DNA of 64,000 nt from Promethearchaeota archaeon (lineage in GTDB: Archaea; Asgardarchaeota; Lokiarchaeia; Sigyniarchaeales; SOKP01). A model generated the notes under the pieces. That model was given only the letters and a program-made list of their open reading frames with translations, ran no database searches and was not told the origin of the DNA. The stretch lies in assembly GCA_048938445.1 (NCBI GenBank), contig JBHLME010000001.1, forward strand, positions 27,951 to 91,950, in the 5' to 3' direction. Below are positions 3,599 to 61,398 of the stretch, one piece after another (position 1 is the first letter of the stretch; each line of letters opens with the position of its first letter). A program made the translations under genes and the position numbers.

Positions 3599-4342
3599 AT
3601 GTTACCACCAACAGAATTTATTGAGGGATTATTTAGCCTGCTTTATGTAATTATCTCCACGTTTATGGGTATTTTAATAGCATCGAAATATTCAATATAT
3701 AGGGATAACACATTCCTTTACATTGGTATCGCGTCAATTGGACTTGGTACCACTCATTGGCCTTCTTCGGTCTCGTTTCTTACCAATGTACTCCTTAATC
3801 AGCCCCTTCCAGAAGACATTTTTCTTCTCACTTCAAGTGCTTTTATCTCATTTTTTTTAATTATATGGATTATTGGAATTAGTAACTTGTTATTTGACAA
3901 AAAAAATTTAATATTCATAATTTTGTTTGTAATACTTCATATTACAATGGAAACCATATTTTTAGTGGCATTTTTCATAAATCCCGATTATGTTGGAGAG
4001 GTTATTGGTCCATATAACTTAAATGCAAAGGTAACAACATTAATGTTCGTTTTAGGGATTATCAATCTCTTAACAATAATTATAACAGGATTTTGGGCAG
4101 CAGTGAGATCCATGAAATCGACTAATCGCTTGATCAAGTTAAAAGGAACATTCTTATTTTGTTCTTTTTTATTGTGGTTTATAGCAATCGCTTTAGAGAT
4201 TCGTGCCGAAGTGCCAACCATTGGAACAGTAATCATAAGAACTCTTTTAATAATAAGTGTAGTTGGATTATATTTTGGATTTGTAATGCCCAATATTGTT
4301 CAAAAATTCTTTATAAAGATTAATCTTTTAAAACCAGAATGA
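3599..4342 (+). CDS. Seven-TM-like membrane protein of unknown function
   Basis: About 7 hydrophobic segments in 247 aa; AGGTG SD-like sequence upstream. Confidence 0.6.
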   Translation: MLPPTEFIEGLFSLLYVIISTFMGILIASKYSIYRDNTFLYIGIASIGLGTTHWPSSVSFLTNVLLNQPLPEDIFLLTSSAFISFFLIIWIIGISNLLFDKKNLIFIILFVILHITMETIFLVAFFINPDYVGEVIGPYNLNAKVTTLMFVLGIINLLTIIITGFWAAVRSMKSTNRLIKLKGTFLFCSFLLWFIAIALEIRAEVPTIGTVIIRTLLIISVVGLYFGFVMPNIVQKFFIKINLLKPE

Positions 4343-4472
4343 AACTTAAAATATACTCTAATCTATTTTTATTTAATTTTATTCTTAGAGTTAATTTATC
4401 ATTTAATTCAACTATCAAGTATTTTCTACTTTCACCCTTAGAACATTAATTTTATAAAAAATACTTGAAAAT

Positions 4473-5615
4473 TTAATCCTTAGGAATAATGTTTACGATT
4501 CTCTTGTTTTGAATCAATGAAATTGCATTTTCAGGACAATGTAGAGCACATACTCCACATCCAATACAATATTCTTCTATCCTTTCAGCTCTATCATCAT
4601 CATTTAATTCAATTGCATCATTGTGGCATTTTTCAACGCAAGTTCCACATCCCGTACACACATTTTGGTCAATTTGAGCCACCCAATTAGTTGAATTATT
4701 CAATGGTATGAATGCATGGGACCTACTGTTAATACAGCAGCATTTACAGCAATTACAGATAGCAACTTCCTCCTTACTGGTATCTGAATACAGATGGTAA
4801 GCTTTATGAACCAATCCTGCTTTCTCCGATTTTTTTAAGATTTCAAGAGCCTCTTCTTGAGACACCATTCGAGAGAATCCATGTTTTGACGTATGTCTTG
4901 CAGATTTTCCTAAAGTAAAACAGTTTTCAACCTCTAATTCAATTTGCTTGCATGGTTCCCCCAAAAAATGCTTTTGATGCCTGCAATAACAATGTCCAGC
5001 AGCAATCTCATCATATTTCTTGATTAAATCTTCAATCCTTTGGGTTGGTAAAATTTCTTCTAAAGGAATGTCCAATTCTTTATCAATTGAAATTTCAATC
5101 GAGTCTCCATCTTTATTTTCTAATGTAGGAACCGTTCGATCGATTGGAGGTAAAGTTTTCAAGAATTCGGTTAATGCATCTTGATTCATATTGAAACTTT
5201 TCTTTAATTCTTCATGTAATTTATTAAATAATATAGCGAGTTCTTTATTTTCTTCTGTTTTTTCAAGTTTTTGCATGAATATATATTCCGATTGTCTGAT
5301 TATTGGTAGTAATCGATATATCATAACACCCCTTCGGTTTGGTTGATCAAATATCACACCCATTTTAGCAAGATTAGAAACATTTTTCAATATTTCTTCT
5401 TCTGATAATTTAGAACTTTCTTTTAACTGCTCCATAGTTTGTGAAATATTTCTTCTAAAGGCTAAAATAAAATCCAATTCTTCTACTTTAATCGTGTGTT
5501 TTAAAATTTTTAAAAGAACATCAGAAAAAGGAATGGGAAATTCACCAGCTTTGTTTAAAACGTTTACAACTTTTTTATATTTGAGATCTATGTTCCTTTC
5601 TTCTTTAGCAGACAT
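4473..5615 (-). CDS. 4Fe-4S dicluster protein with N-terminal wHTH-like region
   Basis: CYCR, CNCCKCCC and C-terminal CTGCGTCVEKC / CIGCGVCALHCP ferredoxin motifs. Confidence 0.85.
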   Translation of the reverse strand: MSAKEERNIDLKYKKVVNVLNKAGEFPIPFSDVLLKILKHTIKVEELDFILAFRRNISQTMEQLKESSKLSEEEILKNVSNLAKMGVIFDQPNRRGVMIYRLLPIIRQSEYIFMQKLEKTEENKELAILFNKLHEELKKSFNMNQDALTEFLKTLPPIDRTVPTLENKDGDSIEISIDKELDIPLEEILPTQRIEDLIKKYDEIAAGHCYCRHQKHFLGEPCKQIELEVENCFTLGKSARHTSKHGFSRMVSQEEALEILKKSEKAGLVHKAYHLYSDTSKEEVAICNCCKCCCINSRSHAFIPLNNSTNWVAQIDQNVCTGCGTCVEKCHNDAIELNDDDRAERIEEYCIGCGVCALHCPENAISLIQNKRIVNIIPKD

Positions 5616-5750
5616 TTTTTATTCACGATATTTTTTTACCTATTTTTAAATAACAGATTTATTTAATCTTTTTATGTATTAAAGCTTTTTATAATGTATT
5701 ATACTCTAAAATATTATATTTTAGAATTTTACTTAATGCGAGTGAATAAA

Positions 5751-6755
5751 ATGGAACAAAAAATTTGCTTAATTGGAAAAGGAAATGTAGGAACGTGTCT
5801 TCTCCAGTTATTGAAAGATAAAGAAAAAGAAATTAAACAAAAATTTCAAATCAATTACTCCATTATGGCAATCTTTGAAATTGATGGAGCATTAATCAAT
5901 AAAAATGGAATAAATTTAGGAGAAGTTATAGAGAAAGGTAAAAATTATAGAGATTTACCTTATTGGAACTCTGGTGTTAAAGCAATAGAAGAATTACCCA
6001 AATTAGATTTAGATATCTGTATTGAAACAACACCAACAAATCCAGATACAGGAGAACCTGCCTTAAGTCATATAATTACAGCATTAAAAAATAGAATAAA
6101 TGTTGTAGCCTCAAATAAAGGACCATTTTATTTACAATACGAAAATATTAAAAAATTAGCAAGAGAAAATAAATGCTCCGTAAGATATGAAGCAACTGTA
6201 GCTAGTTGTGTTCCGGCTTTAAGTATTAGGGAAGGACTAATTGGAAATACGATTACGAGTATAAAGGCAATATTAAATGGTACAACTAATTATATTTTAA
6301 GCAGAATGTCCTCTGAAAGCGTAGAATTCTCAATAGCATTAAAAGAAGCCCAAGAATTAGGATATGCCGAGGCAGATCCTACATTAGACATAGAAGGGTA
6401 TGATGCAGCAGGGAAGTTAGTAATATTAGCAAATGAATTACTTGGGTGGTCAAAAACGATTAAAGACGTGAAATCTAAGGGTATTTCTAAAATTAATGCA
6501 CAAACAATAGAACTAGCTAATATAGACGGATTAGTAATCAAGCATTTGGCCATTGCGGAAAATGATAAATTAATTGTTGAACCTAGATTAATAGAAAAAG
6601 ACAGTCCATTAAATATTTCAGGAACGTTAAATGTAATTGAGCTTCAAACCAAGAATGCGGGTCCAATTATTCTCATGGGTCGGGGAGCTGGGGGCTGTGA
6701 AGCAGCCTCTGCAATATTAAATGATATGATAAATATATCATTAGACCAAAATTAA
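5751..6755 (+). CDS. hom: Homoserine dehydrogenase
   Basis: GKGNVG Rossmann motif, 'VVASNKGP', 'YEATV', 'GTTNYIL', 'GYAEADPTLDIEGYDAAGK'; start moved to ATG 5751 (track starts at 5694). Confidence 0.95.
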   Translation: MEQKICLIGKGNVGTCLLQLLKDKEKEIKQKFQINYSIMAIFEIDGALINKNGINLGEVIEKGKNYRDLPYWNSGVKAIEELPKLDLDICIETTPTNPDTGEPALSHIITALKNRINVVASNKGPFYLQYENIKKLARENKCSVRYEATVASCVPALSIREGLIGNTITSIKAILNGTTNYILSRMSSESVEFSIALKEAQELGYAEADPTLDIEGYDAAGKLVILANELLGWSKTIKDVKSKGISKINAQTIELANIDGLVIKHLAIAENDKLIVEPRLIEKDSPLNISGTLNVIELQTKNAGPIILMGRGAGGCEAASAILNDMINISLDQN

Positions 6756-6796
6756 AAAAGTAGAATATATCTATTTATTTTATTTAGATAAAGAAA

Positions 6797-7357
6797 TTGA
6801 GTATGATGTTAATGAACTTCGAATTTAAAAGCCAATTTAGGGGAATTATTTCTGTTATTGGAGCAAGTGAAATCGATAAAGAAACTGAAAATAAAACAAT
6901 TGAAATTGGGAGGTTATTAGCAAAAAATAATTATATCGTATCTTGTGGAGGTTTGACAGGAGTCATGGAAGCCGTTTGTAAGGGTGCTAAAGAAGAAAAT
7001 GGATTAACAATTGGAATCATTCCATATAAAGATAAATCTGCTGCTAATCAATATGTCGATATTGCTATTCCTGTTCCTTTTTCACAGGCACGAAATATTG
7101 TAGTTGTATTAAGTGGAGATGCATGTGTTGCAATAGCAGGGAAGGCTGGAACATTATCTGAAATATGTTTTTCATGGATATATGGTAAACCACTTATTGC
7201 TTTAACTGATGTCGAAGGATGGTCTTCAAAAATCGCAGGTCAGAAACTTGATGATCGAAGAGAGGATACAATACATGCTGCAAAAACACCAAGAGAAGTC
7301 ATTGAGATCATAAATAAAGTTTTAAAATTAGATAAACCAAAAGGATTTTCCTTTTGA
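6797..7357 (+). CDS. LOG/TIGR00725 family Rossmann-fold nucleotide-binding protein
   Basis: 'CGGLTGVMEAVCKGAKEENGLTIGIIP', 'ARN', 'GKAGTLSE' motifs. Confidence 0.9.
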   Translation: MSMMLMNFEFKSQFRGIISVIGASEIDKETENKTIEIGRLLAKNNYIVSCGGLTGVMEAVCKGAKEENGLTIGIIPYKDKSAANQYVDIAIPVPFSQARNIVVVLSGDACVAIAGKAGTLSEICFSWIYGKPLIALTDVEGWSSKIAGQKLDDRREDTIHAAKTPREVIEIINKVLKLDKPKGFSF

Positions 7358-9519: not shown

Positions 9520-10881
9520 TTGATAATAATGATGTTGCATTCTACAAATAAAAATACTCAAGATGTTGATTTTAAAACAGCCATTATTAGGGGCCAAGCA
9601 TTAGATAAAGGTTTATACATGTTAAATGAATTTCCTAAGCTCAATAAAGAGACGATTTTCTCTTTTAAGACCTTTAAGATTAATGAAATTGGTCATCTTA
9701 TATTATCAAAAATCGTGGGAGATTCCATTCCAAAAAAAGACCTAGAAAATCTTATTGATAAAGCTCTGAATTTTGATGTTCCAGTCGAAAAAATTAATGA
9801 TAATGATTATATTTGTTATTTAGACCGAGGACCGACTGCGAGTTTTAAAGACTTTGGGGCAAGAACTTTAGCACGAATCATGGAATATTATCTTGAAGAA
9901 GATGATTCAAGGGCTATCATATTAACAGCAACATCGGGAGATACAGGAGGTGCTGTAGCACAAGCATTTTATAACATGGAAAGAATAAAAGTGGTTGTAT
10001 TATATCCCAAGAATGAAATTAGTGATTTACAGAGAAAACAAATGACTACACTTGGAAAAAACATAACCGCAATTGGTATTAACGGAAAATTTGATGATTG
10101 TCAACGCCTCGTAAAAACCGCATTTGCCGATCAAGAATTGAAACATCTCAATCTCTCCTCTGCAAACTCGATCAATATTGGGAGATTAATCCCTCAGACA
10201 CTTTATTATTTTTGGAGTTATTCTCGTGTTGTTGAGAGAGAAGGAGAGAAAGTAATATTTTCGGTACCTTCGGGTAATTTTGGAAATTTGATGGGTGGAT
10301 TGATAGCATTTAAAATGGGACTTCCTGTAAAAAAATTTATCAGTGCGGTTAATGAAAATGATGAATTTCCGCGATTTTTAAAAACGGGAGAATATCATAA
10401 AGTGGAGCCTTCTCGAAAATGTATAAGTAATGCCATGAACGTTGGACACCCCTCTAACCTTGCAAGATTGATTGATTTATATGGTGGTCATTTAGATGAA
10501 ACTGGAATAATTCATGTCAATCCCGATATTGATGAAATTAGAAAGGAGATCATTTCTTACTCAATTTCAGATGAATTGACTAAAGAAACAATTGTCAATT
10601 TTTACAAAAAATATAACAAAATAATTGAACCACATGGAGCAGTGGGATGGGCATGTCTTGAAATTTTTCGCAAATCTTATCCTGAAAATGAACAATATAA
10701 AATAATCAATTTTGAAACAGCTGATCCTGCAAAATTTCCAGATGAGATTATATCATTAATAAACATTAATCTAAAAATGCCAGAATCGTTAGATTTAATT
10801 AGTAACAGAAAAGAAAATCCAAATCCAATAGACATTAATAAATATCAAGAATTTAAGAATTTCTTAAAAAACAACTTCTAG
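9520..10881 (+). CDS. thrC: Threonine synthase
   Basis: 'GPTASFKDFG' PLP lysine, 'ATSGDTG', 'SANSINIGR', 'VPSGNFGN'. Confidence 0.95.
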   Translation: MIIMMLHSTNKNTQDVDFKTAIIRGQALDKGLYMLNEFPKLNKETIFSFKTFKINEIGHLILSKIVGDSIPKKDLENLIDKALNFDVPVEKINDNDYICYLDRGPTASFKDFGARTLARIMEYYLEEDDSRAIILTATSGDTGGAVAQAFYNMERIKVVVLYPKNEISDLQRKQMTTLGKNITAIGINGKFDDCQRLVKTAFADQELKHLNLSSANSINIGRLIPQTLYYFWSYSRVVEREGEKVIFSVPSGNFGNLMGGLIAFKMGLPVKKFISAVNENDEFPRFLKTGEYHKVEPSRKCISNAMNVGHPSNLARLIDLYGGHLDETGIIHVNPDIDEIRKEIISYSISDELTKETIVNFYKKYNKIIEPHGAVGWACLEIFRKSYPENEQYKIINFETADPAKFPDEIISLININLKMPESLDLISNRKENPNPIDINKYQEFKNFLKNNF

Positions 10882-11000: not shown

Positions 11001-11942
11001 ATGGAATATCTAAAAGAAGAAACTCAAGCTCAAAAACTACTTTTTACTGGATTAGATAATGCTGGAAAAACTTCAATAATATTGACCCTTCAGAGAGAAT
11101 TTTCGAAGTTTGCAATTCTCTCTCCAACTAAAGGGGCTCAGAGAAGGGTATTCAGTTTCTTAGGAAAACATATCTCCGAATGGGATCTTGGTGGTCAAGA
11201 AAATTATCGTATCTCTTATTTAAGAAATCCAGATAAATATTTTGAAGGAACAGAAATAGCTATTTACGTGATAGATACTATTAATAGGGATCGTCATGAA
11301 GAAGCTCTTAGCTATTTAAAAGATGTAATTGAAAAATTTGAGGAATTAGAAATAGAACCGCCCATTTTCATTTTCTTCCACAAATATGACCCAGTTATTG
11401 TTAAGACTTCAATTGAAGAACTGAATAATACATTAATAAAAATAAAACAGACTATCAAAGAAGAAATTGATTATAAGAAAATTTATTATTATACTACTAG
11501 TATTTATGATAAACCGACAATAATTTCGGCAATGAGTGAAATCTTATTAACCTTATATCCAAAATCAGAGTTGTTGCAGAGGACTATTGAAGAATATGTT
11601 AAAAAAGTTAATGGAATTGGTGGAATTGTTGTTGATGAAAACTCACTTGTAATCTGTACCTATTTCAGTGATGATGATTCAAAAGCAATATTAAATACGA
11701 CCACCCCTCATTTTTTAGCTCTTCATGACAGTTTAAATTTAAGTATTAAGGGTACAACTACTTTACCTAATAATGATGAAATGTTAATACATCGATTTGA
11801 AAAATACTTTGTATTCAAGCCCATTCCATTAGACGATCAAGATATTAATTATTATTTGCTCTTGTTAAAAGATTCTCCAGAATTTACAGAAAGTTATTTT
11901 GAAACATTTTCTAGCGTGTTAAAAGAAGTTCTTGCCAAATAA
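11001..11942 (+). CDS. Rag/Arf-like small GTPase with C-terminal roadblock-like domain
   Basis: G1 GLDNAGKT, G2 PTKG, G3 WDLGGQ, G4 HKYD, G5 TSI; C-terminal 'GGIVVDENSLVI' roadblock-like start. Confidence 0.9.
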   Translation: MEYLKEETQAQKLLFTGLDNAGKTSIILTLQREFSKFAILSPTKGAQRRVFSFLGKHISEWDLGGQENYRISYLRNPDKYFEGTEIAIYVIDTINRDRHEEALSYLKDVIEKFEELEIEPPIFIFFHKYDPVIVKTSIEELNNTLIKIKQTIKEEIDYKKIYYYTTSIYDKPTIISAMSEILLTLYPKSELLQRTIEEYVKKVNGIGGIVVDENSLVICTYFSDDDSKAILNTTTPHFLALHDSLNLSIKGTTTLPNNDEMLIHRFEKYFVFKPIPLDDQDINYYLLLLKDSPEFTESYFETFSSVLKEVLAK

Positions 11943-12132
11943 CTCCTATTTTCATTAATTATTTTTAAGATAGTTTTTTCTTGATTAACCCTATATATAT
12001 GGTTAATGAAAAGTAATGAGAATTTCTTCATGTTAAGAGAACAACTTTCAATTAATAATAATTATTGCTAAAATTAATAAAACTGAATTATTTCTAATAT
12101 AATTGTAGATAAAAAAAAAGACGATATCATTA

Positions 12133-13332
12133 ATGAGAATTTGTAGTAATTGTGGGGCAACCAATCATGAAGAAGAAGGAAGTGTTTGTAGAAAATGTGG
12201 TGCGTTACTTCCTGTAAGTAGGAGTAGTAGAAGGCGCCGAATTGAAATGCCTACCGATGAAGTGAAACAAAAAAAACCTACAATTTCTCAAGAGAAACCC
12301 CTTATTGAAAATAATCAAATTGCACGTAATAATCAGAAAGCAATACAAGCTAATCCTGAAGTAACTTTTTTTGCACCTCAAGAGAAATCAAGTGAGCCAA
12401 TTAAACATCAATTTGATTTACAAGAAATTCCCTTACCAGAGGAATCTGCCGTGGAGGATTCCCAAAGTGAACTAGTTCAAATTCCAACGGTCAAATCTAC
12501 AATTAAGACTCAAAAGAAATTTACTTCTGAAAGGCCTTCAGTGAAACAATTACCCAGAGAGAATGGGATTAGTTTACAAGAAATTAAACCCCAACCGTAT
12601 CAAGGCACGATACTAAAACCCACAGTTCCAAATTTACAAGAGAGTGCTAATCAGTCAAATTCAAAAAATTACTCATCATTACCAGCATTAAAGCCTATAC
12701 CACCAGGAAAGTCTCCAAATAAAATAAAGACTAAACAAACAAAACAGAATGTATCAAAATCCAATAAAAATGTAACGTTACAAGCCACTGATAACATCGC
12801 TTCAATGCAAAAGCAAAAACAACTGGACTTAGAACAAGACATGATCAAGGTCTTAAAATTTCTTTCCAGTAAACTGAGTTTACCCGAAAAACAAACACTA
12901 GCTAAGGGTGAAATCCACGTAGAGAAAAAGTTAGAAAAACAAATAAAACCATCCAGTTTAAATGAAATATTAAAAAGCTTGCTAACAATGGATAGGTATA
13001 TAGAAGCTGCCGCCCTTTTAAAGACAGATGGGACTATTTTAGCTGCTGCAATATCCACGAGAATCTCTGATTCTCTATTTGCCACAATTGGGCAAAACCT
13101 TTCCATGATTGGAACTGATATCATACATGGCCTTAGCGCAGGTGACTTACAATCAATTTCAGTTCGCGGTACAAATGGAATCTTAGATCTAGCTCCTTTG
13201 AATAAGAATTCACCTATAGTAAAAGACATGATATTAATGATTTTTTCACATCCGAATGTGAGAAGTGGAATGATTAATTTTGCCGTTAAGAATGTCGAGA
13301 AGCAGATAATCGAATTTTTAAACGGAAATTAA
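12133..13332 (+). CDS. Zinc ribbon + long disordered linker + roadblock/LC7 domain protein
   Basis: CSNCG..CRKCG; about 200 aa Q/P/K/S-rich linker; C-terminal 'IEAAALLKTDGTILAA...ISVRGTNG' roadblock pattern. Confidence 0.8.
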   Translation: MRICSNCGATNHEEEGSVCRKCGALLPVSRSSRRRRIEMPTDEVKQKKPTISQEKPLIENNQIARNNQKAIQANPEVTFFAPQEKSSEPIKHQFDLQEIPLPEESAVEDSQSELVQIPTVKSTIKTQKKFTSERPSVKQLPRENGISLQEIKPQPYQGTILKPTVPNLQESANQSNSKNYSSLPALKPIPPGKSPNKIKTKQTKQNVSKSNKNVTLQATDNIASMQKQKQLDLEQDMIKVLKFLSSKLSLPEKQTLAKGEIHVEKKLEKQIKPSSLNEILKSLLTMDRYIEAAALLKTDGTILAAAISTRISDSLFATIGQNLSMIGTDIIHGLSAGDLQSISVRGTNGILDLAPLNKNSPIVKDMILMIFSHPNVRSGMINFAVKNVEKQIIEFLNGN

Positions 13333-14360
13333 CAACAAAATAGTATTTATAGTAAAATTATTTTTTATTATTTTGATAAAGGATTGATTTAAACTATCGA
13401 TGTTCAATCGACTTCATATCAATATTTTTTATTTGAATGTTTCCAGTTGAATACATAATAATAAAGAATAGTTATTACATTTTCGTAAAAAACACTTAAA
13501 TAATTATAAATAAAAATAATTAATATGGACAAAAATAAAATTAAAAATCTATGGTTATTACTATTAACGAATTTTATTATTATATCACTAGCACACTTAG
13601 CTAGCTTTATTACTCTATATGAAAATGACCGAGAACCAGTAATTTTTGTTTATTGGATTTTTATAGTAATAGTGTTTCCAATACTCTTAATTATGATATT
13701 AATATTAATAATCAAGGTTTTTAACCATAAAATAATTTGGAAAAAAGCATCAATTCAATGTATAATTATTAGTATTATAATTATAGGTTTTATCTTTTTT
13801 GAAATAATTGAATACTTATATATACCCACTTATGATACAGAGTGGATATTTATTAATGGATCGTACAGACCATTCCGAGTCTCTGTTTCTGAAAGGCCCC
13901 CACCGATAATTTCTACAATTTTTTTAATCTCAAGCATAGCTTCATTATTAATCAGCAGTTATTATCTGGATATCTCGGAATTAACAGTTGAGATAATGGC
14001 ATATCCCAAAAGATATTGTAATAATTGTATGATAAATGTCCTGCCTAAAAAAAAATTTAAATTTTGGATTTTTATAGTTCTACTGATTAGTACTCCTTTA
14101 TTCGGGATTCCAGCAATAATTTATCCAATAGCATATATATTTATGAATAAGAAATGTCCAATATGTAAAGGGAAAAATTTTTCAGCTTATCGAGAAGATC
14201 AACCTGATCAATTACCATTTTCCCCTGATATTCAACAATCTAATCATAAATTTTGTACAAATTGTGGAAATCTATTAATCAGTGGAGCATCTTTTTGTCC
14301 TTATTGTGGAAAACAAATTATTGAATTTTTAAACGAAAATTAACAAAAAAACAGTATTTA
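13300..14360 (+). repeat. Imperfect 50-bp direct repeat (13300-13349 and 14311-14360) spanning two gene ends
   Basis: 43/50 identical by hand alignment; both copies encode KQIIEFLNxN* plus the 3' flank. Confidence 0.85.
13525..14343 (+). CDS. Membrane protein with zinc-ribbon domains
   Basis: N-terminal TM segments; CNNC..TM hairpin..CPICKG; C-terminal CTNCG..FCPYCG. Confidence 0.7.
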   Translation: MDKNKIKNLWLLLLTNFIIISLAHLASFITLYENDREPVIFVYWIFIVIVFPILLIMILILIIKVFNHKIIWKKASIQCIIISIIIIGFIFFEIIEYLYIPTYDTEWIFINGSYRPFRVSVSERPPPIISTIFLISSIASLLISSYYLDISELTVEIMAYPKRYCNNCMINVLPKKKFKFWIFIVLLISTPLFGIPAIIYPIAYIFMNKKCPICKGKNFSAYREDQPDQLPFSPDIQQSNHKFCTNCGNLLISGASFCPYCGKQIIEFLNEN

Positions 14361-14362
14361 GA

Positions 14363-14683
14363 TTAAAGTAATCTAAGTTTTATACCTAAAGAAAAGTATA
14401 GAATTGTTGACATGATGACTATACAGCTGAATACGAAAATACATAATGTCCTTTCCAAACGTAATTTTCTATTCTTCTTAGAACGCGTGATGTAATAATA
14501 TAAAGCAATTATGTTCATTCCTAAAGCCATCAGTAATAATATCATGCCTATTATTAGCACTTCAAAAAAGAATAATGAATCGAATATCAAACTTGAAAAA
14601 ATCAAAAATATCAATCCAAAATACAAGAATACTAACATTACATCCTTATATTCTTGCCTTCTTTTTTCTGATATAAATATCAT
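14363..14683 (-). CDS. Small membrane protein (about 3 TM)
   Basis: Hydrophobic 106-aa ORF with AGGAGG SD upstream. Confidence 0.65.
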   Translation of the reverse strand: MIFISEKRRQEYKDVMLVFLYFGLIFLIFSSLIFDSLFFFEVLIIGMILLLMALGMNIIALYYYITRSKKNRKLRLERTLCIFVFSCIVIMSTILYFSLGIKLRLL

Positions 14684-14751
14684 GTTAATATACCCTCCTT
14701 TTTTAATTATATATCTTGTTTTAATTTTTAATTACAACTACAATTGAAAAG

Positions 14752-14817
14752 TTAAAACATGGGAGAAAGAAGCGTGATAAGTGAATCGAGAGCGGAAATG
14801 TTTGAGTTCCATTTCAT
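14752..14817 (-). CDS. Putative 21-aa peptide, in frame with the upstream 34-aa ORF
   Basis: MKWNSNISALDSLITLLSPMF* with GGAGG 7 nt upstream of ATG. Confidence 0.3.
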   Translation of the reverse strand: MKWNSNISALDSLITLLSPMF

Positions 14818-14841
14818 ATTATTTCCTCCGGCAGGCTCTAA

Positions 14842-14946
14842 CTATAGTATGAGCCCCACTATTACCAAGAAAACTGCTCCTAAAGCCATTAATCCCGACA
14901 TGCCGAGGATACCCATGAGAATTTCATAAACGACTTTAGCTTTCAT
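14842..14946 (-). CDS. Putative 34-aa hydrophobic Gly-rich peptide, absent from the ORF track
   Basis: MKAKVVYEILMGILGMSGLMALGAVFLVIVGLIL*; GAGGTGA SD upstream; locally elevated GC. Confidence 0.55.
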   Translation of the reverse strand: MKAKVVYEILMGILGMSGLMALGAVFLVIVGLIL

Positions 14947-15380
14947 TTTTTGGCAATTTCACCTCTATTATTTTTAAATTATTTGATCTTCAATATACAG
15001 ATATATAATAGTATATTTAAATATTTCGGTCTTATATATCTATACATGCTAGCTTTAATATACATTTTTCATATTAATCATTCAAAAATACAAAAATCAA
15101 GTAAAAATAATTGTATCGAAATATTAAAATCTCATTTCTTTAATATTAATATATTTAACTTAAATATCATTAGAATTTGAGAGTTTAAATATAAGGATAT
15201 TAATTAATTCAACAAATTTTAATGTATAAAGAGAATTATTTCATTAATCCTTAAAGGATTATTACGGAGCATCCCTCAGATATTATAAGAAAGTAAAGGT
15301 TTTAATTGAATTGATGAATCTTAAGAATTAGTTTATGTAAAATCGAATGGATTAATAAACCATCCACGAGGCAAGAAATT

Positions 15381-16763
15381 ATGAAGAATCATTTAAAAAA
15401 GCGATGTATAATATTTTTTGGAACGACTTTAATTATATTATGTGGATTTCTGTTCAATAATAATGCTAATATTAAGATAAGTAAATTTAATTCTAATAAT
15501 AATAATATTAATATTGCTTCACCTCCATCATTTGAGCAGTATTACACGTGGGGGGGTAGTGGTAATGATATTGGGTTTGGTGTGGCTTTGGATGCAGCAG
15601 ACAATGTATATGTTTCGGGATACACAGAGAGTTTTGGAGCACTTTCTCAGGACATGTGCTTAGTGAAATTCAATTTAAATGGAGTGGAATGGAATCACAC
15701 ATGGGGAGGAAGTGGAGATGAGAGTGGAAACGATGTGGCATTAGACTCAGTGGGCAATGCCTATGTAGCAGGACAAACAAGTAGTTTTGGAGCAATTAAT
15801 TACGACTTATGCTTGGTGAAATTCAATTCTACGGGGGTGGAATGGAATCATACGTGGGGGGGCAGTGGAGATGATCATGGACGTAGTGTAGCCTTGGATT
15901 CGGGAAGCAATGCTTTTGTTTCTGGCTACACTGAGAGTTTTGGAGCAATTAATTACGATTTATGCTTGGTGAAATTCAATTCTACAGGAGTAGAATGGAA
16001 TCGTACATGGGGTGGTGGTGGATATGATATTGGATTTGGTGTGGCCTTGGATTCAGCTGGCAATGCATATGTTGCTGGATATACTGGGAGTTTTGGAGCA
16101 GTTAATAACGACTTATGTTTGGTGAAATTCAATTCAACGGGAGGCGTGGAATGGAATTCCACCTGGGGAGGAGCTGGAACTGATGTAGGGCATGATGTGG
16201 CCTTGGACTCGGCAGGTAACGCTTATGTAGCGGGATATACATATAGTTTTGGAGCAATTTTAAGAGACTTATGCTTGGTGAAATTTAATTCAACGGGAAG
16301 CGTGGAATGGAATTATACCTGGGGAGGAACTGGGCATGATTATGGGGCAGAAGTGGTCTTAGACTCATCAGGCAATATATATGTAGCAGGATCTACAAAC
16401 AGTTTTGGTGTGAATGGTTATGAGACATGCTTGATCAAATTCAATTCTACAGGAGTAGAATGGAATCGCACATGGGGGGGTAGTGAAAAAGAAGAAGGGA
16501 ACGATCTGGTCTTGGATGCATCGGGCAATATATATGTTGCGGGATTTACTGAAAGTTTTGGAGCAATAAATAGTGACATACTTTTAGTTAAATTCAGAAT
16601 TCAATCATCTAACGATGGTTCGCAGATACCTGATATCTTGTTCTTCATAATAATAGGAATTATTATTGGAGGTATCACGGGAGGTACAGGAATTGCAATA
16701 ATAATCATAGTAGGTAAAATCCTTCCAAGAAAAAAAAGAGCTCGCGTCAGTAAGGCAACTTAA
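15381..16763 (+). CDS. Membrane-anchored extracellular beta-propeller (SBBP-like repeats)
   Basis: Signal-like N-terminus, seven ~50-aa repeats (WGGxGxDxGxxVALDSxGNxYVxGxTxSFG...LVKFN), C-terminal TM followed by a basic tail. Confidence 0.9.
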   Translation: MKNHLKKRCIIFFGTTLIILCGFLFNNNANIKISKFNSNNNNINIASPPSFEQYYTWGGSGNDIGFGVALDAADNVYVSGYTESFGALSQDMCLVKFNLNGVEWNHTWGGSGDESGNDVALDSVGNAYVAGQTSSFGAINYDLCLVKFNSTGVEWNHTWGGSGDDHGRSVALDSGSNAFVSGYTESFGAINYDLCLVKFNSTGVEWNRTWGGGGYDIGFGVALDSAGNAYVAGYTGSFGAVNNDLCLVKFNSTGGVEWNSTWGGAGTDVGHDVALDSAGNAYVAGYTYSFGAILRDLCLVKFNSTGSVEWNYTWGGTGHDYGAEVVLDSSGNIYVAGSTNSFGVNGYETCLIKFNSTGVEWNRTWGGSEKEEGNDLVLDASGNIYVAGFTESFGAINSDILLVKFRIQSSNDGSQIPDILFFIIIGIIIGGITGGTGIAIIIIVGKILPRKKRARVSKAT

Positions 16764-16857: not shown

Positions 16858-17649
16858 TTAAAATAACTGTTTTTGAATAAAGAGCTTTTTTATTTCAATA
16901 GTTTTATACCAGTTGATATACATTGGCAATTCTTGAAGGAAAGCATTCAAGCGATAAATTCCGACGAGAGGGATCTGGTTATCATTCATTTTTACTCCGT
17001 TATCTTCCATTGTAATCATCATCGGAATCATTATAAAGGGCAATTTTACTTTATAGTTCATTCCTAATAATTCTTGTATTAGACTAGATAGTTTTTGAGG
17101 ATTTTTTTTTAAAGCAATAACCCTACGAAGTTGATGATTTGCCGCTTTATTGATTGCATTAAAAGAATCTTTATTTTTCCATTGTTTCGCATCTATAATT
17201 AACATGTATTTATCATGTATTCCAATAACATCAATTTCATACCTTTTTTGCTTAGTATTAGATTTAAAAGTTGATTGATCACTAAATCTAAAGTTTTTAA
17301 TCACATGAAATCCATGTCTTGACAGAATTTCTTCTATGAGGGCTTCAAATCCAGAATAATCTAATAAAATTGAGAGCTTTTTGATGTCTAAATTAATATA
17401 TTTCATGCATTCGCAAATATATTGAATTTTATTAATTGATACATAAAAATTTTTTGTATAATTCCCATCTTCAATTTCTATAAAGTTAAACTCATGTAAA
17501 AAATGGTCCAAATCAATTTTATTTGATATTTTACATAATACGGGAATCTCATTAATTTGTTGCCAAACATCCATTACATTTCGGTCAACATTTTTAAGAA
17601 TATGATAAACTTCTAAGAAAAAGCGTTCTATAATTTGAGGGGAATGCAT
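16858..17649 (-). CDS. PD-(D/E)xK restriction-endonuclease-like protein (Mrr/NERD-like)
   Basis: 'FEALIEEILSRHGF', 'EIDVIG...IIDAKQW' catalytic motif. Confidence 0.8.
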   Translation of the reverse strand: MHSPQIIERFFLEVYHILKNVDRNVMDVWQQINEIPVLCKISNKIDLDHFLHEFNFIEIEDGNYTKNFYVSINKIQYICECMKYINLDIKKLSILLDYSGFEALIEEILSRHGFHVIKNFRFSDQSTFKSNTKQKRYEIDVIGIHDKYMLIIDAKQWKNKDSFNAINKAANHQLRRVIALKKNPQKLSSLIQELLGMNYKVKLPFIMIPMMITMEDNGVKMNDNQIPLVGIYRLNAFLQELPMYINWYKTIEIKKLFIQKQLF

Positions 17650-17873: not shown

Positions 17874-19292
17874 ATGGCAGACAGCAAAAAAGAACTCATA
17901 AAAAGCATAGTATTATCCATATTCGATGAAGAAGGGCCAAGTCCGATAGTCTACTGGCCAGAGAGCTTAGACGAGACATCAAGCCACCTGATTGCTATGA
18001 AAACTATTAGTTTATTAATGGGTGATGCTGTATATCAAGATGGAGAAAATGTTGATGGGATAAATTATTTTGGAATATTACCTTTTCCAGATATAGGTTT
18101 AAATGGTTTAACTTACTTTTTTTTAATTTCTGATGAACGTGCTCGAGGTCAAGCAAAAGCAGCTACGATCACGATTTTAATAGATGAACGGAATAACAGC
18201 TTTTTCTATTCGAACATGAAATACCTCAGGATATTGCTCGATAAAACGGCGACTAATGTTCAAACTACACTTGAATTTGACAAATATTCAAGATACATGG
18301 ACGAATTGCGTGAAGAATTAAATGAATTTACAAGTGAATTGAAGGATCCATTTTTTTCAAATCGAAAATTAAAAATTATTATGGCTGGACTAGATAAAGC
18401 GGGGAAGTCCAGTTTCCTTAAGGGTGTAAAAAAAAAATATTCTGAAATCATCAAAATATTACCAACAAAAGGAGTTGACAGGACAGAAGAAAAATTATTT
18501 GAGGAGCAAAATTCTCAGATCTCTATTTGGGATTTAGGTGGCCAAAAACAGTACAGAGATAAATATCTTGAAAATAGTAAAATTTATTTATATAATGTTG
18601 ATTTAATTTTTTATTTAATTGACATTCAAGATACGAAAAGAATGGATCATTCTTTAGAACTATTTAGAGATATCATTAACACTTTAAAGCAATTCGATGA
18701 GTATCCTCCTATAGTTATTTGTTTTAATAAATTCGATCCTGATATTAAAAATTCAGATAAATTAATAAAAATCAGTGAACAAGCGACCCAAGAGATTAAA
18801 AAATATTCAGATAATTTCTTCATTAAAGTATTTCATACATCTATTTTTGACCATTATTCTTTAATTACAGCATATTCTTTTGGGTTATCACAATTAAGTC
18901 CTAACCGAGAATTGTTTTTAAATCAATTGAGAAACCTAGCAAATCGAATTGATGCAGGAGCTTTACTATTAATTAATGATAATGGCATTATTCTTTCTAA
19001 TTTTTCAAAGATCTCAGATAAAGTCTCTGATAAAGTATTTGAGATATCAGCACCTCACTTTCAAACTTTATATAAAACATTTAAAGAATTTAAATTATTG
19101 AAAAAAGACTTTATCATGTCTACAGGAATTACTGATGATTCTAAAAAAATTGTATTTAAAAAAATAAATGTTGGAAAATATAACTTGTATTTACTTTTTT
19201 TCATAGAATCTGAATTTGGCATGGATAAATTAGACCAATTTTTACCAGATTTCAGTCTAAACTTGACTGAACTGATGAAAACTTATCTTTAG
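17874..19292 (+). CDS. Folliculin/uDENN-like longin + Rag/Arf-like GTPase + roadblock fusion protein
   Basis: N-terminal 'VLSIFDEEGP' and 'FLISDERARG'; G1 GLDKAGKS, G2 PTKG, G3 WDLGGQ, G4 NKFD, G5 TSI; C-terminal 'ALLLINDNGIILS'. Confidence 0.85.
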   Translation: MADSKKELIKSIVLSIFDEEGPSPIVYWPESLDETSSHLIAMKTISLLMGDAVYQDGENVDGINYFGILPFPDIGLNGLTYFFLISDERARGQAKAATITILIDERNNSFFYSNMKYLRILLDKTATNVQTTLEFDKYSRYMDELREELNEFTSELKDPFFSNRKLKIIMAGLDKAGKSSFLKGVKKKYSEIIKILPTKGVDRTEEKLFEEQNSQISIWDLGGQKQYRDKYLENSKIYLYNVDLIFYLIDIQDTKRMDHSLELFRDIINTLKQFDEYPPIVICFNKFDPDIKNSDKLIKISEQATQEIKKYSDNFFIKVFHTSIFDHYSLITAYSFGLSQLSPNRELFLNQLRNLANRIDAGALLLINDNGIILSNFSKISDKVSDKVFEISAPHFQTLYKTFKEFKLLKKDFIMSTGITDDSKKIVFKKINVGKYNLYLLFFIESEFGMDKLDQFLPDFSLNLTELMKTYL

Positions 19293-19325: not shown

Positions 19326-20603
19326 TTACCACGCACTTTTATTTCTTCTATTTTTCTTGACTATTGCGGAAATTATTATAACCGAAACAACCACGGCCGC
19401 TCCGATAATACTTAAAATAATAATTAACGGTAACAATTTTAGCCAGTCAAATGGTGGAAGCAAATTTGTATCAGTCACAGTTATGGTTAACATATAATTA
19501 TCGCTCAGACCACTTGTATAGGCAGTATATAAATAGTTATATTCACTAAGATTATAAAAATGGAGACTTCCATCATAATAAGGAAATGGAAACCACGCAC
19601 CGAGAGTTTGAGTCATTCGAAGATAACTACTTGTTTTTACATAACTTGGATTTTGAGGTTCACATTGGATCCATCCAACTGTAGGAATGTAATATTCAAC
19701 CCAGGCATGTGCCAATAATTCTGTAAATGAATAAGTCCAAGTTTGGCCAACATAAGGTTTATATCCCATATCTTGAACAATCATGAAACCACCTGCTTTG
19801 CGGGCGGGTATTCCTTGAATTCTCAATAAGGTTATCATTAATGTAGAATATTCTGAACAATCCCCAGTCGCTTGAACTTGTGCCCAGAGAGCACCTTTCT
19901 CATCAGCACCAAGTTGATCATTATAAGTAATATGGCTACTCACATAGTTAATTATTGCTTGAGCTTTATCGAATGGATTTGTATAACCACCAGCAATCAC
20001 ATTTGATACAATACTTAAAGTTGGATTGTCTCTTGGATAAATTGAATCTGATTGATTACAAAAATAAAGAAACATATCATCTGAAGTGTTATAATCATTC
20101 ATGGTAATGGGTAAACTAGAAAGATCTCCATATGTCACTTCATTTAATGTAATATTATACTTTTGGTCAAATGTAATCGATTGTCCTGTAGGCAATGCTG
20201 AATGATTGAATAAATCAAATGTATTCCCATATTCATCACGGATGACAGTAGAAGGTGTCTGACTTCCGACTACTTTACTATAGAGAAGTTGGCTTTCTTG
20301 AAAAGGACCGGAGTATTTTGATGTAGTAGAATTAGGTTGCAAATCATCAAATCTAGGATGTCTCAGATAATAATGACCAGTACCACTTCCGGTTTGCGTG
20401 ATTGAGAAATTTATTTCCACGTCATAAGTAACGCTTTGAGTGATCATGTAGTTAGAAACTCCCGCAGCAGAAGTATTTAAAGAATAACTTGAATTGTATA
20501 TTGAGTATGATGAGACTTGAAAAATTGGAACAAAAAAGTTTGCAAAAATAGCAAAAATTAATAGAATACTTGATGCTATATATTTAGGTTTGATACTTTT
20601 CAT
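19326..20603 (-). CDS. Membrane-anchored secreted transglutaminase-like protein
   Basis: 'GDCSEYSTLMITLLRIQGIPAR' and 'HAWVEYYIPTVGW'; signal peptide and C-terminal TM. Confidence 0.9.
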   Translation of the reverse strand: MKSIKPKYIASSILLIFAIFANFFVPIFQVSSYSIYNSSYSLNTSAAGVSNYMITQSVTYDVEINFSITQTGSGTGHYYLRHPRFDDLQPNSTTSKYSGPFQESQLLYSKVVGSQTPSTVIRDEYGNTFDLFNHSALPTGQSITFDQKYNITLNEVTYGDLSSLPITMNDYNTSDDMFLYFCNQSDSIYPRDNPTLSIVSNVIAGGYTNPFDKAQAIINYVSSHITYNDQLGADEKGALWAQVQATGDCSEYSTLMITLLRIQGIPARKAGGFMIVQDMGYKPYVGQTWTYSFTELLAHAWVEYYIPTVGWIQCEPQNPSYVKTSSYLRMTQTLGAWFPFPYYDGSLHFYNLSEYNYLYTAYTSGLSDNYMLTITVTDTNLLPPFDWLKLLPLIIILSIIGAAVVVSVIIISAIVKKNRRNKSAW

Positions 20604-60070: not shown

Positions 60071-60240
60071 ACTACACACGGCTTAAAAGCCGTTGCTTCC
60101 TACGAGTGCACAATCGCTTCTAAAACGGATCGGTCTGTGTGTCGTAGAAAACCATTCCATTGTGTTAGGAATGATTCCTCGTTCACGGAGGGTTTATGCG
60201 AGAGGAAATCGAAAAACTGTTTGGTTTTTAAAAATCTTAC
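60067..60240 (-). ncRNA. Putative omegaRNA (reRNA) scaffold of TnpB
   Basis: Inferred from family behaviour: scaffold overlaps the 3' end of tnpB and ends at the right end; 5' boundary uncertain. Confidence 0.5.
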
Positions 60241-61398
60241 CATAATATTAATTGCCGAGTTAAGATCCCGGTCAATATGATTTCCACAGTCGCAATTTAT
60301 AATCCTTTCAAAGAGGGGTCTTTTTTCAAGCTTTCCACATTTACAGCAAGCGCGAGTGGTTTTTGACTCGTCAATTCTTATCACTCTCTTACCTATTTTT
60401 TCAGCCTTATAGGTCAAGAATTCGACAAATCGCGCCATATAGCCCGTGTTATGTACTGAATGGTTGAGTGTCTTGTGTGCTTTTGTTTTTAGTGAATTTC
60501 CCGTTCCCTTTTTCTTTTGAGCCATCTGTTTTACTTTTAAGTCTCCTATAATTATCGTATTTGCCTTAGTATTGCGTACAATCTGCCTTGAAAGCCAATG
60601 CTGGAAATCTTTTAGTTGATGAGCCTGTTTGGTGATCATATTCTTTAGTTTTGTATCATACCATTGCCATCTATTGCTATATTTCTTACAATGGTCGCGT
60701 TTCGACTGGACTTCTTCTATCTTCTTTTTCCAATACATGTCAGCTCGTCTATTGGTGAACTGTATTGATTTTCTTGATAAGTTTATTCCCACGATTTGAT
60801 TGATTCCCAAATCAAAAGCTTGATATAAACCATTGTCTCGATATTCTGGCACCTCAATCTCATAAGTAATAGAAATAAACCATTTATTTCTTGAGAGAAA
60901 CAGTTCTGTCTGCTTGATGGTTTCTTTTGGAATGAGATAGGATGGAAGTTTAAATTCAAGCACTATATTGGAGGGATGTCTATGTGAAAAAACAATTGAA
61001 CTTTTATTTACCCTGAAGCCAGACTGGTTATAACAAAGTGTTGTAAAATACTTTTTTCCTCGAAATCTTGGTGGTCTTGCCTTTTTATCTCCTCTTTTCC
61101 AGAGGTTAAAAAAGGATTTATAGTTCGCATCGAGTTTTTTAAGAGTATTTTGGAGGACTTTCGAATATACCCACCGATATTCGGGATACTGCGTTTTCAA
61201 TGTGGGTAAATTGCTTGATTGATCCACATATCTCAAATAATTTCGCTCTTTTTTTGGTTTAACTTTCTCTTGGTGCCAATTTTTTAACCGTTCCGCCAAT
61301 GCAAAGTTATAAAGGAGTCGACATTTTTCTGATAAATCCCAAAGAACCTGTTTTTGCTCCTTATCAGGAGCGATCCTAATTTTTTGGGTGAGATACAT
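60100..61398 (-). CDS. tnpB: RNA-guided endonuclease TnpB with rearranged RuvC-II
   Basis: HTH 'CRLLYNFAL', RuvC-I AFDLG (D196), 'IIIGDL', 'IDESKTT', Zn finger CCKC..CDC, RuvC-III DRDLNSAINI (D378). Confidence 0.95.
   Translation of the reverse strand: MYLTQKIRIAPDKEQKQVLWDLSEKCRLLYNFALAERLKNWHQEKVKPKKERNYLRYVDQSSNLPTLKTQYPEYRWVYSKVLQNTLKKLDANYKSFFNLWKRGDKKARPPRFRGKKYFTTLCYNQSGFRVNKSSIVFSHRHPSNIVLEFKLPSYLIPKETIKQTELFLSRNKWFISITYEIEVPEYRDNGLYQAFDLGINQIVGINLSRKSIQFTNRRADMYWKKKIEEVQSKRDHCKKYSNRWQWYDTKLKNMITKQAHQLKDFQHWLSRQIVRNTKANTIIIGDLKVKQMAQKKKGTGNSLKTKAHKTLNHSVHNTGYMARFVEFLTYKAEKIGKRVIRIDESKTTRACCKCGKLEKRPLFERIINCDCGNHIDRDLNSAINIMVRFLKTKQFFDFLSHKPSVNEESFLTQWNGFLRHTDRSVLEAIVHS

Follow-up and report, generated by a model that had tools for sequence, protein, structure and literature searches.

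Which GTPase do the longin domains of Asgard archaea serve? Amino-acid sensing in eukaryotes is carried out through the Rag GTPases, whose nucleotide state is under the control of two longin-domain GTPase-activating proteins (GAPs), GATOR1 and folliculin. The question bears on one gene on a stretch of 64,000 nucleotides (hereafter the window; contig JBHLME010000001.1) from a Promethearchaeota archaeon, which encodes a longin domain, a Rag-like GTPase and a roadblock domain in a single chain (hereafter the focal protein). A 2025 survey of longins (PMC12290439), in whose text the word "fused" is absent, posed the client GTPase of the Asgard longins, ArfR or Rag/Gtr, as a question. Because longin and Rag-like GTPase are covalently linked in the focal protein, its family is a concrete candidate answer.

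The gene product, from a Lokiarchaeial (Asgard) archaeon, is a small GTPase with three domains, and we regard this architecture as near certain. An initial annotation, made from the letters alone, had described a folliculin-like longin, a Rag-like G domain and a roadblock domain, and this description is now backed by Pfam, two AlphaFold2 (AF2) models, two fold searches and ESM Atlas. The open reading frame (ORF) and the two peptides that it had singled out, SIVLSIFDEEGPSP at residues 11-24 and TYFFLISDERARGQAKAATITI at residues 80-101, were found as described, and the codon of Arg91 is cga at 18144-18146. What was observed in that annotation is confirmed, and its interpretation is partly supported. 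The coordinates of all features are collected in Table 1.

For the central domain, residues 167-383 were matched to positions 1-219 of the 232 of Pfam Gtr1_RagA (PF04670) with 3.6e-26 and 92.5 bits against a cut-off of 22. Pfam Arf scored 73.1 bits (2.5e-20) and SRPRB 32.6 bits (cut-off 25), the latter far under Gtr1_RagA, and NCBIfam assigned a generic small_GTP domain only. All five motifs (G1-G5) of the complete G domain claimed in the initial annotation are present, and the focal protein has the intact nucleotide-binding motifs and the catalytic glutamine, Q224, of the Rag/Gtr family. In a wider set of 99 aligned rows, which includes paralogues of 27-45% identity, K178 is kept in 99, Q224 in 94 and D288 in 98. 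The P-loop, GLDxAGK[ST], has the form found in Arf1, which accepts the SMCR8 finger. A sequence search of the PDB with the focal protein gave LokiRagO (8yl2) at 3.9e-33, a second Loki Rag-like entry at 1.3e-25 and RagA at 4.6e-11.

The full-length AF2 model was built on 34 orthologues and has a predicted local distance difference test score (pLDDT) of 65.2 and a predicted template modelling score (pTM) of 0.53, and its inter-domain geometry is not trustworthy. By secondary structure, a long helix separates the longin from the G domain, and the roadblock comes last. Searched against the PDB, this model matched, over about 300-330 columns, LokiRagO 8yl2 with an E-value of 2.5e-20, and RagA, Gtr1 and RagC chains with target template modelling (TM) scores (TMt) of 0.65-0.75. 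The roadblock domain is placed directly C-terminal to the G domain, with low confidence in residues 380-424. Ahead of the G domain lies a hinge, of which K157, D158, P159 and F160 are each conserved in at least 90% of the 34-orthologue alignment.

The N-terminal domain gave a better model. For residues 1-160 the AF2 model, based on a diverse alignment of 26 rows, reached a pLDDT of 90.2 and a pTM of 0.87, with strands at residues 9-18, 21-28, 65-71, 76-86 and 94-104 and helices at residues 34-48, 105-131 and 136-157. In the PDB fold search with this model, the top match was 8yqg, a longin domain that comes from a Lokiarchaeal Roadblock-Longin protein (TM 0.72), and next came the GATOR1 entries 9o5a_H (1.1e-4), 9o5d_D, 9v0j_A and 7t3b_B. 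Further matches were the Lst4 longin 4zy8_D (6.2e-4), the FLCN-FNIP2 entries 6ulg_N (7.5e-4) and 8dhb_J, SEAC entries, and C9orf72-SMCR8 entries with a query TM score (TMq) of 0.60. TRAPPII (rank 8) and DENND1B (rank 12) are interspersed among the longin-GAP entries, while MglB, SRX and LAMTOR rank below them, the SRX-SR-beta entry 1nrj standing at rank 45 with an E-value of 2.6e-2 and a probability of 0.54. Only six matches have E-values of 1e-3 or less, and the search names entries, not subunits; the assignment of chains to NPRL2 or FLCN is our own.

ESM Atlas, searched with its own model of the domain, gave a consistent picture: Asgard longin-Ras fusions were matched at TM 0.82, a Heimdallarchaeota cluster with Folliculin in 23% of its members at 0.79, and the eukaryotic clusters of FLCN/SMCR8 type, SMCR8 and C9orf72 at 0.74, 0.72 and 0.74, respectively. 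A fold other than longin had been named in the initial annotation as a finding that would refute it, and the confident model and the fold matches show a longin fold. According to these models, the N-terminal domain is a longin of the FLCN/NPRL2/SMCR8 structural class.

Sections 2.4 and 2.6 of PMC12290439 give a GP motif and an arginine finger as the marks of longins with GAP activity, and its section 2.4 reports the two together as absent from non-GAP longins such as FNIP2, NPRL3, adaptins, TRAPP and DENND proteins. The focal longin has the GP motif and, in Arg91, a candidate for the finger. A homologue search gave 593 matches. The best 120 among them all span the full length (467-489 amino acids, 63-82% identity) and, where named, belong to Asgard metagenome-assembled genomes (MAGs) and are annotated as "ADP-ribosylation factor-like protein". 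Strict conservation of the GP turn and of the Arg91 loop is seen in 34 orthologues with identities of 63-82%: none of them departs from G21, P22, R91 or G92, and at least 90% have A90. In the 99-row set, G21 and P22 are kept in all rows and R91 in 90. Conservation of the arginine in orthologues, which had been proposed beforehand as a check of the finger, is therefore complete among the 34. Since these four residues are invariant in the orthologues, the motif match is more than chance.

In the canonical longin sheet, whose strand order is 2-1-5-4-3, the hairpins beta1-beta2 and beta4-beta5 lie side by side at one end. Arg91 would be held near the GP turn at this same end of the sheet and is a candidate arginine finger, matched to the fingers of FLCN, NPRL2 and SMCR8 by loop position only.

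The suggestion that the motif is a chance resemblance and the N-terminus an unrelated alpha/beta domain can be regarded as effectively refuted. It could appeal to the Pfam family Folliculin (PF11704), which stays below its cut-off on residues 79-139 (20.8 bits against 23.3, E-value 3.7e-4), and to the longin profile of 26 rows, which among PDB sequences matched 8yqg only and, at E-values up to 10, no FLCN, NPRL2 or SMCR8 chain. We rejected it in view of the confident longin model, the agreement of the two structure searches, the invariant motifs and the relatives that exceed the Folliculin cut-off among 93 scanned (P0173 with 28.7, P0143 with 27.1 and P0194 with 24.5 bits).

These relatives belong to a wider superfamily, which was collected by searching cluster representatives with residues 1-155; 113 proteins were obtained at E-values of 1e-3 or less, and Pfam was run on 93 of them. 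The same longin is found N-terminal to Rag-type GTPases, mostly of 460-580 amino acids with some shorter or truncated, and N-terminal to Ras-family GTPases of about 335-365 amino acids (for example P0143, P0144, P0147, P0160 and P0183). It also occurs in P0161 next to Ras and a TIR domain, in P0155 and P0214 next to TrmB or winged-helix DNA-binding domains, and in short or roadblock-longin proteins. Of 112 rows, 84 span both motifs and make up the motif alignment; P0206 and P0216 were dropped as spurious, and fragments for coverage. Among the 15 Rag-type fusions, G21 and P22 are each present in 15, R91 in 10 and the RG motif in 8; the corresponding numbers are 26, 24, 24 and 22 for the 26 Ras-type fusions, and 42, 40, 30 and 29 for 43 rows from other contexts. 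With the query included (85 rows), G21 is found in 84 and P22 in 80. As judged from this alignment, the GP turn is nearly universal in the longin class, and the arginine common yet dispensable. The new point is that the longin half of these fusions belongs to the GP/arginine-finger class and is fused to Rag-like as well as Ras-like GTPases, with the arginine mostly kept.

One Arg-less member, P0139, is a full-length paralogue of the focal protein (33% identity, 5e-97). Its accession is four numbers away from that of P0125, an Arg-bearing longin-Rag-roadblock paralogue whose contig is of equal length (51,416), and the two may be a catalytic and non-catalytic pair encoded close together.

We favour, with an even chance of its being right, a mechanism in which the focal protein works as a switch and brings along its GAP, Arg91 acting on the fused G domain. 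Two chains would be paired by their roadblock domains and probably also by their longin domains. Arg91 would then be delivered into the nucleotide pocket of the fused G domain, either its own or, somewhat more likely, that of the dimer mate, where it would complete catalysis together with Q224, as FLCN does on RagC/D, NPRL2 on RagA/B and SMCR8 on Arf1. Domain reorientation or partners would gate the finger's access, and the first candidates for such partners are the LokiRagO-like and zinc-ribbon-roadblock neighbours described below. This mechanism is supported by the retention of the arginine in 10 of 15 Rag-type and 24 of 26 Ras-type longin fusions, and by the focal G domain, which with K178 and Q224 keeps all that a finger-assisted GTPase needs. 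Pairing through the longin domain is supported by 8yqg, a related Asgard longin (profile E-value 1.3e-22) that was deposited as a dimer. A complex prediction for two copies of residues 7-472 with two GTP gave 0.38, 0.37 and 0.26 in three runs, a median of 0.37 against a mark of 0.42, and three controls gave 0.00; we count this neither for nor against dimerisation or insertion of the finger.

Several points weigh against a built-in GAP. The RG motif is missing in 7 of the 15 Rag-type fusions (P0139, P0148, P0150, P0164, P0198, P0211 and P0212), and therefore the fusion does not need the finger; the solved relative 8yqg likewise has no arginine at the finger position in the profile alignment. 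Loss of the arginine was not coupled to loss of the catalytic glutamine among 41 fusions, for which the regular expression missed some motifs: among Arg-less rows, 4 of the 7 of Rag type and all 3 of Ras type retain the glutamine. To these are added the sub-threshold Folliculin score, the profile search that matched 8yqg only, the modest fold E-values to eukaryotic longin GAPs (1e-4 to 1e-2, TMq 0.46-0.60) and the only moderate quality of the full-length monomer model. Finally, a GAP that is tethered for good would have to be gated in some way, and no such mechanism was seen.

The longin domain could instead be non-catalytic, serving as a dimerisation platform, as an SRX-like intramolecular clamp on the switch regions or in a GEF-like manner (as a guanine-nucleotide exchange factor), as most longin/DENN modules do, with Arg and GP being structural or binding something else; we consider this unlikely. 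In SR-alpha, the longin domain (SRX) binds SR-beta in its GTP-bound form, and the SRPRB score of the focal G domain and the presence of 1nrj in the fold list are in line with such a clamp. The 7 Rag-type fusions and 8yqg that lack the RG motif, and the dimeric deposition of 8yqg, also suit a non-catalytic longin, and the introduction of PMC10933270 describes most longin and roadblock modules as platforms or GEFs. However, GP and Arg are invariant in the focal orthogroup, the two were reported absent together from non-GAP longins (PMC12290439, section 2.4), and the best eukaryotic fold matches are longin-GAP complexes, not SRX, TRAPP or LAMTOR. As for a pair of the SRX and SR-beta type, SRX is not the best match of the longin, nor is SR-beta the best family of the G domain. 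The Arg-less paralogues and the Arg-less 8yqg do mean that the longin domain has roles independent of the finger, and even with a non-catalytic arginine the longin class would still be a general add-on of Asgard small GTPases.

If the built-in GAP is put in an evolutionary frame, the fusion may be taken as a "Rosetta stone". It would mark Rag-like GTPases, and in sister families Ras-like ones, as the native clients of Asgard longins with GP and arginine finger; the pairing of longin GAP and Rag would be pre-eukaryotic, in the focal protein as a single self-timing polypeptide, Arg91 would act across a dimer held by roadblock and longin contacts, and the Arg-less paralogues would prefigure FLCN/FNIP, NPRL2/NPRL3 and SMCR8/C9orf72. 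We hold this extended reading to be possible and offer it tentatively.

Table 1. Features of the focal gene and of its neighbours in the window (positions are those of the window).
Feature	Position	Strand	Basis or remark
Longin / Rag-like GTPase / roadblock gene (focal gene)	17874..19292	+	ORF, ATG start, 472 amino acids; Pfam
Longin core, residues 8-131, beta-beta-alpha-beta-beta-beta-alpha-alpha	17895..18266	+	AF2 model and fold searches
GP motif G21-P22, beta1-beta2 turn	17934..17939	+	conserved in 34/34 and 99/99
A90-R91-G92, candidate arginine finger, beta4-beta5 loop	18141..18149	+	conservation; loop from AF2 secondary structure
Third helix (residues 136-157) and K157-D158-P159-F160 hinge ahead of G domain	18279..18353	+	N-domain model; conservation
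G domain, residues 166-339	18369..18890	+	Pfam Gtr1_RagA and Arf; PDB sequence matches
G1 GLDKAGKS, residues 172-179	18387-18410	+	motif position
G2 T198	within 18462-18473	+	motif position
G3 DLGGQ, residues 220-224 (Q224)	18531-18545	+	motif position
G4 NKFD, residues 285-288	18726-18737	+	motif position
G5 TSIFD, residues 322-326	18837-18851	+	motif position
Roadblock domain, residues 345-471	18906..19286	+	secondary-structure order alpha-beta-beta-alpha-beta-beta-beta-alpha in AF2 model
Second Rag-like GTPase-roadblock gene, 313 amino acids, no longin, LokiRagO homologue	11001..11942	+	8yl2_A 1.3e-73
Zinc-ribbon / low-complexity linker / C-terminal roadblock (LAMTOR2-like)	12133..13332	+	Zn_ribbon_3 0.0017, Robl_LC7 0.022
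NERD/Mrr-like nuclease-domain protein	16858-17649	-	divergent neighbour of focal gene
Transglutaminase-like membrane protein	19326-20603	-	downstream neighbour of focal gene

The window is a typical Asgard stretch, in which the focal gene stands alone between two genes of the opposite strand. A synteny scan of species-representative genomes gave 107 relatives, and 80 loci were retained from these; genes scored as missing include those of loci cut by contig ends. The kept order is (threonine synthase), RagO-like gene (+), zinc-ribbon-roadblock gene (+), NERD-like gene (-), focal gene (+), transglutaminase-like gene (-) and five more genes. The NERD-like gene lies upstream in 70 of the 80 loci, the zinc-ribbon-roadblock gene is present in 67, directly after the RagO-like gene, and the RagO-like GTPase-roadblock gene lies upstream, no more than 6 kb from the orthologue, in 60. 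The other neighbours are a 213-amino-acid protein (65 loci), the transglutaminase-like protein (63), a 167-amino-acid protein (60), a methyltransferase (57), an HhH protein (48) and a 577-amino-acid protein (45). A second new point is that, across these 80 MAG loci, two more roadblock proteins share a conserved block with the focal orthogroup. Because the block has mixed strands and contains housekeeping genes within one lineage, its weight as evidence for a functional link is weak to moderate.

The second GTPase-roadblock ORF at 11001-11942, to which the initial annotation had pointed, does exist (Gtr1_RagA 4.2e-24), and its protein is 30% identical to the G domain and roadblock part of the focal protein. 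For the zinc-ribbon protein that follows it, the C-terminus was matched in ESM Atlas at TM 0.75 to a Robl_LC7 cluster and at 0.93 to an Asgard "Roadblock/LAMTOR2" cluster.

This neighbour leads to another explanation, that the longin is a GAP module for a different GTPase, either the 11001-11942 protein as the leading candidate, in a Rag-like heterodimer formed through the roadblocks, or a free Arf-related or Ras-like GTPase. Rag-type roadblock domains are present in both GTPases, and the two roadblock neighbours recur upstream at the frequencies given above. Eukaryotic Rags are heterodimeric and longin GAPs act on them in trans, for the latter of which sections 2.4 and 2.6 of PMC12290439 may be consulted. 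The arginine is, moreover, kept in 30 of 43 rows of other contexts, such as stand-alone and roadblock-longin proteins, and therefore action in trans must exist somewhere in the superfamily. Against this, the genes are separate transcription units with an opposite-strand gene between them, and at one locus (L011) a housekeeping NrdD-like gene as well; the block resembles general collinearity within one lineage; and the closest solved relative of the 11001-11942 protein is titled a homo-tetramer, showing no obvious need of a hetero partner. The link drawn in the initial annotation gains some support from the recurrent upstream position in 60 of 80 loci and is weakened by the housekeeping genes in the block and by the homo-tetramer. 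We consider a client in trans improbable for the focal protein, and retain the built-in GAP.

Several observations on the block are recorded here. The RagO-like and zinc-ribbon-roadblock genes, which lie on the same strand (11001-13332 in the window, and recurring among loci L002-L080, for example at 925-3025 in L011), resemble a Rag-plus-roadblock pair in their own right. The gene directly upstream of the RagO-like one is threonine synthase, both in the window and in the seven loci with a flank long enough to show it (L002, L009, L011, L012, L020, L025 and L060). In the window it lies at 9520-10881, and homoserine dehydrogenase (5694-6755) and an ACT-domain protein (1593-2084) are found further upstream, placing amino-acid biosynthesis genes beside a Rag-like GTPase. 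Between the zinc-ribbon-roadblock and NERD-like genes, at 13525-16763, the window has a zinc-ribbon protein, a 106-amino-acid ORF and an SBBP beta-propeller repeat protein, which recur in 0, 0 and 1 of the 80 loci, respectively.

In L011 a gene for an NrdD-like reductase (3986-5791) lies between the NERD-like and focal genes; the window has no NrdD-like gene there, and many other loci have a gap of about 2.2 kb at its place. The orthologue is split into two ORFs in L069 (5947-7410), and in L015, a complete chromosome record, the match at 5956-6930 covers residues 3-270 only; frameshifts, pseudogenes or assembly errors may account for these two cases. Far from the block, at 60100-61398 on the minus strand of the window, a TnpB/IS605 OrfB-like mobile-element protein is encoded (Cas12f1-like TNB, HTH_OrfB_IS605, OrfB_IS605).

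By label, the 80 loci comprise 55 of Promethearchaeota/Promethearchaeia, 10 unlabelled, 5 of Hodarchaeota, 5 of Hermodarchaeota, 2 of Odinarchaeota, 2 of Thorarchaeota and 1 of Nanopelagicaceae, Promethearchaeota being the NCBI name for the Lokiarchaeal phylum. In a FastTree tree of 74 full-length rows, the labels other than Promethearchaeota are scattered singly among Promethearchaeota rows, and because of this scatter we treat the orthogroup as Lokiarchaeial. Phylum labels as a proof of breadth were dropped, since their distribution (rows numbering 5, 5 and 2, with 5, 5 and 2 changes, respectively) was no better than in shuffles. On the present sequences, the tight orthogroup looks confined to Lokiarchaeota, and the ancestor of the FLCN-Rag switch that the initial annotation had suggested is conjectural. 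The locus titled as a Nanopelagicaceae bacterium (L048, contig DATKTW010000091.1) carries the whole Asgard block, with a focal protein nested among Promethearchaeota rows, which makes mis-binning of the contig probable. The homologues bear the names of Promethearchaeota/Lokiarchaeota MAGs, in agreement with membership in the Asgard longin-GTPase-roadblock proteins of PMC10933270.

Parts of this picture are already in print, and the novelty of the fusion was overstated in the initial annotation. Longin-Arf-like GTPase fusions of Lokiarchaeum were reported in 2016 (PMC4917890, Box 1), and longin-GTPase-roadblock proteins of Prometheoarchaeum MK-D1 in 2024 (PMC10933270, "Asgard small GTPases"; 74 sequences). 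These proteins have the same domain order as the focal gene, and the two papers give architecture and AF2 models only; PMC10933270 shows AF2 dimers, and the term "arginine finger" is absent from its text. Asgard longins of FLCN/SMCR8 type have GP motif and finger, structurally arranged in the same way, according to section 2.6 and Figure 5D of PMC12290439. These longins share motifs and structural class with the focal longin, whose relatives pass Pfam Folliculin, and differ in that the survey treats them as longin proteins, not as GTPase fusions; its Data S1, with 15 Asgard longins, may already include such fusions. Among the texts covered by our literature search, none joins an arginine finger to a longin-GTPase fusion, and no paper on LokiRagO, LokiRagM or Roadblock-Longin was found there. 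In a part of an Arf preprint (10.1101/2024.02.28.582541), Asgard RagGtr sequences are placed around the eukaryotic ones.

Among solved structures, LokiRagO (8yl2) and LokiRagM (8zla, 9m28) share G domain and roadblock with the focal protein and are its best sequence and fold matches. Because 8yl2 and 8zla align to residues 166-419 only, the N-terminal longin has no counterpart in them. Of the solved longin domains, 8yqg is the closest; it has the GP motif and was deposited as a dimer, and it differs in following a roadblock rather than preceding a GTPase, and in having no arginine at the finger position. A catalytic arginine supplied by the same polypeptide or by the dimer mate is known from the helical domain of G-alpha and from dimerisation-activated GTPases. 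Their logic is the same as that proposed here, and with unrelated folds the comparison is one of analogy only.

The focal protein is a small, soluble, single-protein system, which makes it a simple case for testing possible beginnings of the nutrient-sensing Rag switch of eukaryotes, and whether the pairing of longin GAP and Rag predates eukaryotes could be settled on it. Compared with the eukaryotic pairs of GAP and client, that is, GATOR1 (NPRL2-NPRL3) with RagA/B, FLCN-FNIP with RagC/D and C9orf72-SMCR8 with Arf1, its sequence link is weak, as seen from the Folliculin score and the PDB profile search. Pfam finds no DENN after the focal longin, nor is there another C-terminal module; GTPase and roadblock follow instead. 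No partner longin gene, and so no separate non-catalytic longin partner, was identified among the 56 window ORFs scanned. On the side of the GAP, the likeness to the eukaryotic systems lies in a longin with GP turn and arginine loop, for which their complexes are the best eukaryotic fold matches; on the side of the client, it lies in a Rag/Arf-like G domain with catalytic glutamine and a roadblock C-terminus. In the focal protein, as predicted from its sequence, a single chain contains both the GAP-type longin and the GTPase.

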